Below are positions 35,601 through 38,600 of a DNA stretch of 64,000 bases, piece by piece (position 1 is the first letter of the stretch; each line of letters opens with the position of its first letter). Source of the stretch: Nitrospirota bacterium (GTDB lineage Bacteria > Nitrospirota > Nitrospiria > Nitrospirales > Nitrospiraceae). A program made the position numbers. The stretch spans positions 32,001-96,000 of the forward strand of contig CAVPGK010000017.1 in the NCBI GenBank assembly GCA_963703955.1, given 5' to 3'.

Positions 35601-38600
35601 GCCGGCCCCTTTGGCTTCAACGGAAACCTGCCATGATCTAAATCTCTCAGGCAAGACGTACAGATGGTGTGCGTGCTTCCCCTGTCTTTATGAGGCGGTT
35701 TGTCGCCCAGTTGTTGCTTGCACCAAGCGCAGATGATAATCATCAGGACCACCTCTGAAGGTGAGGATTGGGGAAAGGATTACCTGAGCCGTTCACTCAT
35801 GGTCCGCTTTCCTGGATAGATCTTTCGTGAAAGGCTATACCTCCTGGCAGATGCAATCTGGTCAAAATTGCTCAGTTGTAAGAATTGATGGCGCGGGGCA
35901 GCTTGAGGCTGCCGCTGCGTGGGATAACAGCAAGGGCACGTCGTTCTGAGGGACGCGGTGACCAGACAGATGAATTGGGTGGGAGAATCTTGGCGGCCGG
36001 TGACATCAGTTCGTGCATGCGGATGACGGGGATCGCAGGACGGCTCCGCCTAGGCCGTCAATGATCGGGCTAGGCCCACGACACTCTGACGACACGAAGC
36101 CGAATCTGCGCTGTGCTCGAAACAGCGAGGCTGGTCAACCTAGTCGTGCAGGACGACACCGAGGAGGGAGCTGTGAACTTGCAATCCGCCGTTGTAATGA
36201 ATGAACCCCAGCTTCCGGAACTTATTCAGAAAGAAACTGACGCGGGACCGTGTGGTGCCGACCATGTCGGCCAGTGTTTCCTGACTGATCTTCGGAACGA
36301 CCGGCTCAGGCTTGCCTTCTTTCCCAAAGTGGGCCAGCAGCAGGAGGATCCGCGCCAGCCGCTTCTCGCTGGAATTAAACAATTGATCCACCAAGTCTTC
36401 TTCGATGCGAATGTTGCGAGACAGCAGATAGGAGGTGAAGAGCTCCGCGAATGTGGGTTCGTCGTGGAGCACGCTGATCATGGCGTTTTTGTCGATTCGA
36501 ACGATGCTGGCGTCTTCGAGTGAGGTCACGGTCCCCATGCGAACAGCCTGCCCTGCCAGGCAGCCTTCACCAAAAAAACTACCACGCTCCAGGATGGCCA
36601 CGACGGCTTCTTTGCCTTGTTGGGACACCACGGTGAGCTTGACCTTGCCCTGCTGCAGATAGAAGACGGCATCCGCCGCATCCCCTTGCGAAAAGATAAT
36701 GTCTTTCTTTCGGGACTGCAGAATGGGTTTTTCCGTTGCCGACCTTGGTGAGAAAGGTTTTAGGATTGAAAAGCGAGGTTCGTTTGCGTGCCATCGACGT
36801 CGCCCAAGGAAGTTCTGGCAAGTGTTTCAGAGATATCAGAATACCAGGGTGGTGAATTGTTTTGCAAGAGTGTTTTTTGAGGGGGTATTACAGTGGGCTA
36901 GGAAGCTCAAACCGCTAGATCTATGCACCTCAACATACATGCATGCCTCACGCATCTATGTTTCTCCGTGCATGGACTACCTGCTGCGCGTGGTTCTCCT
37001 TTATCATCAAGGGAGCTTTCATGAATACAACTTGACAGCGCACCCAAATAGCGCGTAGCCTGACACCATGACGTTCTGAGCCACGCCGACTGCCCTATTA
37101 CTCGCGCTTCGCGACTCCTCCTCGCGCGATTGATTCTCCAGTCTCCGCCGCTTCCTACGCCAGACTCTCTTTAAAGGCACTGTCATGCCTTTCCGGTCAT
37201 CGGAGGCCAATGCCCTCTTTCTGGCTTGTAATGTGCTCTCCAGGAAAGCAGCATGCCGGACCGCCGCCGCCAATGCGACGAGCGGAATCATACGATGGGC
37301 ATTGGACAAATCCGTTGGCCCTACAAACGACCCGGTAAGGTTATCAAAAGTCGAATCACGGTCTCGCGTAAAAACAAAAGGAGGGCGACATGAACCACGA
37401 GCAATTCAAACAGAGTTGGTGCCAACTTGAGGGACATCTTAAGAAGCACTGGGGAAAACTCACGAAGGACGATCTTGCACGGATTGATGGCGATTTAGAT
37501 ACATTCAACAGCGCCATCGAACAGCGTTACGGCGAGATGAAGGGAGAGGTCAGCAAGTGGGCGGACCGATGGTATGCCCGGTGGACCGGGTGGTATGAAG
37601 GGTACGAAGAGGCGAAACCGACCTCTTGACTGGTTGAACCAAGTCCACCGATAAGCCGCTGGATCTCAGGCCTGAATAGCATAAGCACATTGCTTCGGCG
37701 AGGTGCCTCATGAGGACATTGACGATTCTGTTGTGCGTCCTGTTTGTCGGGTGTGCCGGACTGACGGATTTCGGCTTGGCGTCTCAGCACAAAGTCCGTT
37801 GGGGTGAGATCGTCCGGGATGATCGTATCACGGATCAACCGACGGCGAAGGCAGAGCCGGAATATGTCGCCACGAGAGATCATGCGGTCTGGCAGTATTT
37901 TCATGACAGAGGGCGCGACTTCAACAAGCGCGACTGGGAAGTCGTGACTTGGTACGCACATCTCAGCCGTGCGGATCGTCGGCAGGTTGACGCGGAGAGT
38001 GGCCCGGATGACGCGCATGAGACACTCCTGCCGGATAGCCCACCGTCACTGCAGCCCATGGCTGATGTATGGCCGTCGATGGCTCTGGCACCGACGCCGC
38101 TCTATCCCATCGTCCAGGAGCCGACGTTCAATCCTAATCCCGGGTTCACCTGTAGTACGTATAAATTGGGAGGGAGCAGTTCGGCCACCGATTGTTTTTG
38201 GCCACCGTGAGCCAACCAGCCGCACGTATTAATGGAGGGAGTGTATTGACTTCCTGCTGGGTGTGGTTATGTCTACTAGGTAGTGGATGAAGCGCTCCGA
38301 TGAAGGGTCGTTGAAATCCCAATCCCCATTCAACCTCGCCTTTTCCCTCGCTTCCACCGAAGTAGACCGAAACGACATGCCGATGAAAAGGTACCGGCGA
38401 CGCTACAGGGCTGCTGGGCTCGCCATTGCAGAATGAGCGCCACGACCGGCTCAACACGGCGAGCAAATCATTCCGAACTCAGTCACGATCTGAGGAAGAA
38501 CCAAAAGGAGAAGGTATGAATACGAGAAACTTTGTGCTGACGATCGGCATTCTCTATTTACTGGTGGGAGCGCTAGGCTTCCTTCCCGCGCTGGTTTCCG

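Follow-up and report, generated by a model that had tools for sequence, protein, structure and literature searches.

Among the structures described at the 5' ends of mRNAs are the stabilising 5'-terminal stem-loops of the ompA type and the cold-shock leaders of the cspA and rbp types. ANTAR target RNAs consist of two hexaloop hairpins overlapping a terminator, ROSE and fourU RNA thermometers pair the SD inside a hairpin that melts, and the ligand pockets of riboswitches are usually purine-rich. Further systems are taken here from the relevant sections of published reports. According to these sections, the Salmonella corA leader is Rho-dependent and rich in C and YC, with a short ORF and mutually exclusive folds (PMC5314796); the FopS RNAs of Bacteroides are paralogous sRNAs bound by the RRM protein RbpB (PMC11697453); the cuckoo RNAs of Alphaproteobacteria carry two to four short hairpins with CCUCCUCCC loops and variable stems (PMC4615179); and RRM proteins are cold-stress RNA binders with autoregulation (PMC13370968).

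Here we compare with these systems a hairpin element that recurs in a Nitrospirota genome and, in particular, in a 64-kb stretch of its DNA (the window). The genome-wide survey's note had described the interval 37030-37171 (+ strand) as a promoter-proximal structured leader. The interval falls into two parts, a sigma-70-type promoter followed by a hairpin at 37068-37162, ahead of a csbD-like gene with its SD (GGAGG) at 37380-37384:

37024..37027, + strand: AATA motif just 5' of the -35 box, recurring in relatives (column counts)
37032..37037, + strand: -35 box TTGACA
37056..37061, + strand: -10 box TAGCCT (family consensus TAGNNT)
37068..37162, + strand: leader hairpin beginning at the predicted +1, with five helices and near-symmetric pyrimidine internal loops
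37068..37079, + strand: possible leaderless mini-ORF AUG-ACG-UUC-UGA (putative; a start, and a stop at codon 4)
37108..37123, + strand: apical C/U-rich loop, CCUUCC being enriched in the family
37390..37629, + strand: csbD-like gene, 79 aa (PF05532, E 3.9e-10, slightly below the curated cut-off)

Searches with blastn and nhmmer on sequence alone recovered 11 full copies in the genome, seven of them in the window, together with one partial copy (contig C13); two covariance models, both built without the promoter, confirmed this set, which is that of the earlier count. Pairwise identity among the full copies ranges from 60 to 98% (median 72%). Two remnants were also seen, one on contig C10 that keeps the promoter and about 30 nt, and one on contig C11 that keeps only the 3' strand, ahead of a csbD-like gene. 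Every one of the 11 full copies is followed on the same strand by a small ORF at a distance of about 72-219 nt, as had been claimed. The remaining six copies in the window are as follows:

8858..8965, - strand: copy ahead of a 97-aa gene (8454-8744) with a signal-peptide-like start and no Pfam family
20838..20936, - strand: copy ahead of a 73-aa zinc-ribbon-like gene (20513-20731)
43495..43584, + strand: copy with a short loop, ahead of a second erpA (43715-44035)
49183..49283, + strand: copy ahead of a 73-aa zinc-ribbon-like gene (49395-49616)
59311..59412, - strand: copy ahead of a 66-aa zinc-ribbon-like gene (58945-59142)
60991..61092, + strand: copy ahead of a 64-aa hydrophobic ORF (61165-61359)

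A weak match at 39386-39487 (15 bits) was considered as a further copy and received no support from the covariance model.

The hairpin is built of five short helices; between them lie near-symmetric internal loops composed almost entirely of C and U. Several unpaired columns, pyrimidine in nearly all cases, reach an invariance of 94-98%, and a stem that serves only to stabilise would have no need of this. Folding energy is a poor guide to the element: the whole interval 37030-37171 folds no better than its shuffles (z -1.1), the hairpin part alone reaches z -2.6, the six other window copies range from -1.4 to -5.2, and the minus strand folds equally well (z -2.9), so that energy does not discriminate between the strands. 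The covariation reported by the survey was reproduced on a MAFFT alignment not fitted to the structure. It comprises 86 copies, all of published genomes, that had been retrieved with a structure model and are related to each other rather than independent. Of 2141 cells 95.0% are paired, both sides change in 14 of the 25 pairs (few such changes per pair), none of 500 shuffles reaches the observed pairing, and in slid controls 26-50% of cells are paired. Of the five helices the basal one is weakest (89% paired), and it is missing from the consensus fold of two gene families. Because the aligned copies were model-found and related, the strand was checked independently. The genome's own 11 copies, found by sequence, contain 16 G-U cells against one A-C, and core pairs across copies contain 103 G-U against eight A-C. 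In 51 distinct copies from loci chosen solely by their downstream protein, the core pairs comprise 851 Watson-Crick, 74 G-U, no A-C and 43 other combinations. It is this G-U excess, 74 to 0 in the protein-picked loci, that fixes the folding strand as the promoter strand, which is the transcribed one and the one first proposed.

A promoter scan program returned no sites around the 37030-37171 copy since its threshold is four of six positions per box, of which TAGCCT has three; we therefore relied on an explicit promoter rule with controls. By this rule a sigma-70-type promoter, which lies outside the covariance models, precedes 135 of 192 copies as against 135 of 3840 control windows. Of these 135 copies, 85 have exactly 6 nt between the -10 box and the start of the hairpin, and 103 have a purine at the predicted +1. 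In the copy at 37030 the spacer between the two boxes is 18 nt. Seven of the 11 copies in this genome pass the rule and four fail it, where eight of 11 had been counted earlier by eye. The idea of a special promoter class was abandoned: among the 17 top-ranking sites of the similar type TTGAC-N17-TAGNNT, 10 lie in other parts of the genome with no hairpin behind them, and the promoter ahead of the element is therefore probably of the ordinary type.

For 155 of the 194 distinct copies, each with at least 700 nt downstream and with genes taken from a simple in-house caller, the first downstream gene is co-oriented in 154; its start codon lies a median of 124 nt (minimum 36 nt) past the element, and 140 of the 154 genes encode proteins of at most 130 aa, which bears out the description of a structured leader ahead of small-protein genes. 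The upstream gene has no such orientation, being co-oriented in 74 cases and divergent in 52. Sequence conservation ends sharply past the hairpin in four gene families, leaving an unconserved spacer. Terminator-like sites show no excess behind the element (14 of 192 copies versus 27 of 576 shuffles), and pairing of the element with downstream RNA in 70 leaders (0.231, versus 0.261 for shuffled downstream sequence) gave no conserved alternative fold. In whole-leader folds without pseudoknots, SD openness falls by more than 0.2 in 23 of 135 leaders and rises in two. RNA-run contigs from two studies span an element (3898-3998 on locus L197) into the erpA gene that begins at 4130, covering 3849-4431 and 3961-4533. 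As two RNA-run contigs start upstream of the promoter and such contigs may stem from DNA, they are no evidence of transcript start, strand or level. The available expression tables for N. moscoviensis (PMC6606698) hold no rows assignable to element positions, and the consulted sections on N. marina (PMC8115632) hold nothing that bears on the element.

This anatomy favours a self-contained 5' module, read as a shape with conserved C/U loops, over a switch acting through pairing with downstream signals. An aptamer of a new riboswitch class with a hidden expression platform would account for the conserved unpaired bases and for the recurrence ahead of unrelated genes that share one physiological theme, but the terminator, the conserved SD pairing and the alternative fold that might betray such a platform were not found, and the loops are almost purely pyrimidine; we give this idea only a slight chance. 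The fixed promoter-proximal position, the lack of an expression platform and the presence of operons of many small genes would suit a nascent RNA that, like put, binds RNA polymerase and aids its passage through strings of short genes, and putL lies directly downstream of its own promoter, as described in part of PMC9378689. In the same account put comprises two stem-loops of about 70 nt, however, whereas the element is one long hairpin, and no terminators that would need read-through were found within 110 nt downstream. We regard a put-like role as very improbable.

The main rival to the reading we prefer (see below) is a Rho-gated attenuator, in which a C-rich Rho loading site would be hidden in a marginally stable hairpin; once this is opened by a ribosome on the mini-ORF, by a protein or by temperature, Rho would stop transcription in the untranslated spacer. 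The composition of the element fits such a gate, with a C/G ratio of 1.84 and 0.25 YC per nt against 0.95 and 0.14 for a background of 370 upstream regions, where an equal C skew is reached by only 1.4%, and so do the Rho gene in the genome and the spacer, with its median of 124 nt and its unconserved sequence. An AUG or GUG with a stop at codon 4 is found in 78 of 194 copies, involves all three stop codons and also occurs in the two other families that carry the element (see below), and the corA leader with corL offers a precedent in the part of PMC5314796 devoted to it. Yet the remaining 116 copies lack the mini-ORF, and no conserved alternative fold was found. A naive Fisher test on the mini-ORF gives p 1e-7, but the tree-aware test, with three independent pairs only, had no power, and pairing and the purine at +1 account for most of the start and stop letters. 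On balance we think Rho gating unlikely. The same doubt attaches to its most elaborate form, a class-wide regulon switched after initiation, in which a pyrimidine-mismatch zipper at +1 would hide a Rho site; either a ribosome translating a leaderless ORF of three codons or a dedicated small protein that the regulon itself encodes would open the zipper or keep it closed. If this is true, sigma-factor control would be joined by a general stress response at the RNA level.

The range of the element proved both wider and patchier than the survey's note had supposed. In the family of the window a match was found in 123 of 150 genomes (120 of 147 without the unpublished G006, G052 and G075). A sample of the class gave 45 of 53 genomes in this family, six of seven in a family outside this order, two of 25 in a sister family and none of 65 elsewhere, and copies in both of these other families keep the promoter, the spacing and the type of gene, so that the element is not specific to Nitrospiraceae. 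A sample of the phylum gave no match in 131 genomes outside the window's family and the family outside its order. Nor is conservation family-wide, as 10 near-complete genomes of the window's own family have no credible match. In five of these 10, no close homologue of the csbD type led by the element is present, and erpA and iscA occur solely as housekeeping genes; the element thus appears to be gained and lost together with its genes. It is dispensable. Other phyla were covered solely by a pattern scan of GTDB, which returned at least 122 loci, with Nitrospira, Nitrospiraceae or Nitrospirota in the titles of almost all of them. Pattern matches in Methylibium and Rhizobium obtained no covariance-model score; a record titled Deltaproteobacteria (72 bits, on a 5.8-kb contig) nests among Nitrospira copies and is probably misbinned.

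The downstream genes form 29 similarity clusters. The Pfam families at or near the first position are CsbD, DUF1328, Fe-S biosynthesis (ErpA), zinc ribbon, BON, YtxH, DUF2934 and PepSY, and many element-led genes have no Pfam family. The element leads at least nine unrelated gene families, with up to 11 copies per genome. We call this set a stress regulon because of the known nature of families such as CsbD-like, DUF1328/YtjA, BON and YtxH, which we take to be small stress-type proteins. The window region also carries second copies of erpA, iscU and two ferredoxin-oxidoreductase subunits, 87-92% identical to copies elsewhere. At loci picked by protein, as the closest matches to queries taken from element-led genes, the element is present in 30 of 30 csbD-type and 24 of 30 ytjA-type cases. 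A tree of the promoter-plus-element sequences, built from 125 sequences over few columns with 29 singleton-family rows left out, clusters them by downstream family across genera, needing 28 label changes against 79.8 when shuffled. On this tree, the copies would have been inherited together with their gene family across genera.

These relationships bear on the possibility that the element is a DNA-level or mobile promoter cassette whose hairpin has no role as RNA. The 37030 copy is 98% identical to another copy that leads a different gene, and a near-identical csbD paralogue at window position 4732 lacks the element and has another leader instead; reshuffling of this kind is recent and continues. 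Eight copies, moreover, lie within 63 kb of contig C17 in a mosaic region with duplicated genes, the distribution is patchy, and G-T pairs would fit single-stranded DNA too. Against a cassette, the hairpin folds on the transcribed strand, beginning at the predicted +1, its loop varies in length from 5 to 33 nt, unlike a palindrome bound by a dimer, no terminal inverted repeat or target duplication is evident by eye in the one recent pair, and viral contigs, phages and plasmids gave no match. As copies cluster by downstream gene family across genera, the survey's own worry over a domesticated mobile cassette is mostly answered, recent reshuffling being what remains of it, and we hold a purely DNA-level role to be highly doubtful.

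The apical loop, which varies around a mode of 16 nt, is 82% pyrimidine, and CCUUCC occurs in 45 of 133 loops against 8.4 after shuffling; the anti-SD word CUCCU is not enriched. A role of the loop as an anti-SD was rejected, since real loops bind the SD no better than shuffled ones (-8.19 versus -8.24) and pair equally well with their own and with foreign SDs. The same figures weigh on the idea that the leader is processed into a multicopy small RNA or protein sponge that works in trans, in the manner of FopS or the cuckoo RNAs. Up to 11 copies per genome, a promoter of its own and an exposed C/U loop would be in keeping with such an RNA, and the loop does pair better with SD regions (-8.2 kcal/mol) than with spacer (-5.2) or coding (-4.6) windows; shuffled loops pair with the SD just as well, however, the leaders of RRM genes rank just 106-402 of 503 as targets, and the element is nearly always 5' of a co-oriented gene. 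The survey had left the choice between a cis-regulatory RNA and an sRNA; the cis leader stands, while the sRNA is weakened because there is no terminator and because the orientation bias concerns the downstream gene only, and we rate it as rather improbable.

Candidate readers of the loop were sought among the proteins of the genome, in which no tested candidate tracks the element well across genomes. There are six RRM-like matches, and degenerate copies of the element adjoin RRM genes in three loci, one of which also has a neighbour whose start, read by eye, resembles a DEAD-box helicase. Pairing of the loop with the RRM leaders was tried and dropped: 135 of 184 comparisons were favourable against shuffled loops, but the three leaders rank only 106, 264 and 402 of 503 regions. 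A winged-helix family is found in 51 of 53 genomes of the window's family and in none of seven in the family outside the order, and a helical family of 47-67 aa ('MGDRFGSTE') occurs in 12 genomes without the element and is missing from 13 of the 45 that carry it. In seven loci, picked from coordinates, a winged-helix microprotein gene lies 49-59 nt behind the element. That this protein might be a Z-alpha domain acting on an alternating CG stem was rejected on its predicted structure (pLDDT 82), a generic winged helix that matches Z-alpha chains (Z 10.0-10.1) and many transcription regulators equally well; in the atlas it led to clusters without names and to weak names of winged-helix type.

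Taken together, the fold, its strand, the promoter distance, the 5' position, the co-inheritance with gene families and the absence of a terminator or conserved switch are covered by computed support, and we consider it very probable that the element is a functional cis leader RNA of some kind. How it would act is a more tentative matter. The reading we prefer, at somewhat less than even chances, is that of a protein-bound 5'-terminal leader module that sets the stability or output of the mRNAs of an accessory stress regulon. The module would form the 5' end of mRNAs transcribed from ordinary sigma-70-type promoters, with transcription starting at the base of the hairpin, and its paired 5' end would shield the mRNA from 5'-end-dependent decay. 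It would thereby mark a dispensable regulon of CsbD-like, DUF1328/YtjA, BON, YtxH and DUF2934 proteins, zinc-ribbon and winged-helix microproteins and a spare erpA, and a pyrimidine-binding protein reading the conserved C/U loops could set the stability or output of all members jointly. The single-domain RRM proteins of the genome and the winged-helix microprotein are candidate readers.

In soils, aquifers and treatment plants, Nitrospira act as drivers of nitrite oxidation and comammox. A single element suffices to delimit a regulon, comprising 29 gene clusters with many unannotated microproteins and spare iron-sulfur genes, and being short and portable it can be put to the test in vitro or in reporter fusions, with no need for genetics in Nitrospira itself. 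With loops almost wholly of pyrimidine and no expression platform, the RNA would have an uncommon fold and could lead directly to a new RNA-binding partner.

The element is a real and apparently undescribed family of structured 5' leaders. Rfam 15 gave no match at E<=10 around the 37030 copy, at E<=5 in eight loci of other copies, or at gathering score in the whole window, which extends the earlier negative result to further copies. In the openly accessible literature no description of a structured regulatory RNA or RNA motif of Nitrospira was found, and the available main text of two motif-discovery papers (PMC11109978, PMC8632094) makes no mention of Nitrospira.

Compared with the systems introduced above, the element resembles a riboswitch in being a structured, covarying domain 5' of genes, and differs in having no intrinsic terminator as expression platform. 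Unlike ANTAR target RNAs it has a single loop and no terminator; unlike RNA thermometers it leaves the start codon at least 36 nt (median 124 nt) past its hairpin, whose pairing is predicted to be stable to about 55 C. With the Salmonella corA leader it shares a C/YC-rich stretch that could hide a Rho site in a host that has Rho, as well as a short ORF overlapping the first stem in some copies, but it is multicopy, has the mini-ORF in only 78 of 194 copies and yielded no mutually exclusive folds. With HK022 putL (as covered in part of PMC9378689) it shares a compact form, a place directly downstream of the promoter and independence from a terminator of its own, whereas it is a single 95-nt hairpin of chromosomal stress operons and not two stem-loops in about 70 nt. 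Like FopS it is a multicopy RNA family confined to one lineage, and its genome encodes single-domain RRM proteins; the FopS RNAs, in the relevant sections of PMC11697453, act in trans with a single-stranded 5' seed and an intrinsic terminator, whereas the 5' end of the element is paired and no terminator follows. Its C/U-rich loop and multiple copies recall the cuckoo RNAs, from which it differs in having one hairpin, conserved stems and CCUUCC rather than CUCCU. Most folds place its first pair no more than 1-2 nt from the predicted +1. In contrast to leaders of the ompA, cspA and rbp types, it is one element family with conserved C/U internal loops, present in many copies ahead of many gene families; like them, it puts a folded structure right at the (predicted) 5' terminus of a long leader that is untranslated and has no terminator.

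Additional copies of housekeeping genes occupy window positions 41246-45980, where two ferredoxin-oxidoreductase subunits (87% and 92% identity), a second erpA (88%) and a second iscU (92%) duplicate copies elsewhere in the genome, alongside a more distant beta-type subunit. Duplicated small genes in the window are near-identical, with leaders that differ between copies; the region that holds these duplicates is a patchwork in which modules have been reshuffled.

Near-identical small-gene pairs with different leaders (window positions)
4732-4971 versus 37390-37629
3488-3928 versus 38516-38956
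4012 versus 40301
8081 versus 50709

Divergent from the reported element copy (37030-37171) lies a Crp/Fnr-type regulator gene (36140-36821, minus strand), which is apparently divided between two frames. From reading of translations, window positions 9450-17669 and 24965-31699 hold putative type I restriction-modification and toxin-antitoxin gene fragments, together with a putative large glycosyl-transfer gene, also fragmented.

Three families of small proteins were noted across the window, the genome under study (G000) and other loci (L-numbers). Stand-alone winged-helix microproteins, with eight matches in G000, were found in 51 of 53 genomes of the window's family and matched no Pfam family above cut-off. 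An unnamed protein of 47-67 aa with an invariant MGDRFGSTE core is encoded within element-led operons both in the window's family and in f3, a family outside the window's order, where its gene adjoins that of a probable methyltransferase. Four-cysteine zinc-ribbon microproteins gave 16 profile matches in G000.

Small-protein genes
Window 21278-21496, winged-helix
Window 44319-44633, winged-helix
L003 11709-11975, winged-helix
L002 8460-8756, winged-helix
L059 533-724, MGDRFGSTE
L198 2767-2910, MGDRFGSTE
G000 C11:160954-161109, MGDRFGSTE
Window 20513-20731, zinc-ribbon
Window 49395-49613, zinc-ribbon
Window 58945-59142, zinc-ribbon

The element itself occurs with its promoter in divergently transcribed, back-to-back pairs at four loci (L021, L022, L030 and L067), and in a divergent subtype with a longer loop and altered lower stems, near which RRM genes lie in three loci.

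Divergent element subtype
L002 7247-7360
L027 726-838
L029 1815-1927
L199 2135-2250
L200 2236-2345

Single-domain RRM genes at the loci listed below are preceded by a second conserved leader of ~150 nt, distinct from the element, for which a search of Rfam with the L199 locus returned no match; the four-sequence consensus folds as a long hairpin.

Second leader before RRM genes
G000 C13:54909, minus strand
G000 C11:11182, minus strand
L199 ~3110-3262
L200 ~4255-4406

A full element copy with ytjA and csbD genes is also present in a record titled Deltaproteobacteria (L076, 1176-1279); this copy groups within the Nitrospira copies, and the record is probably misbinned.
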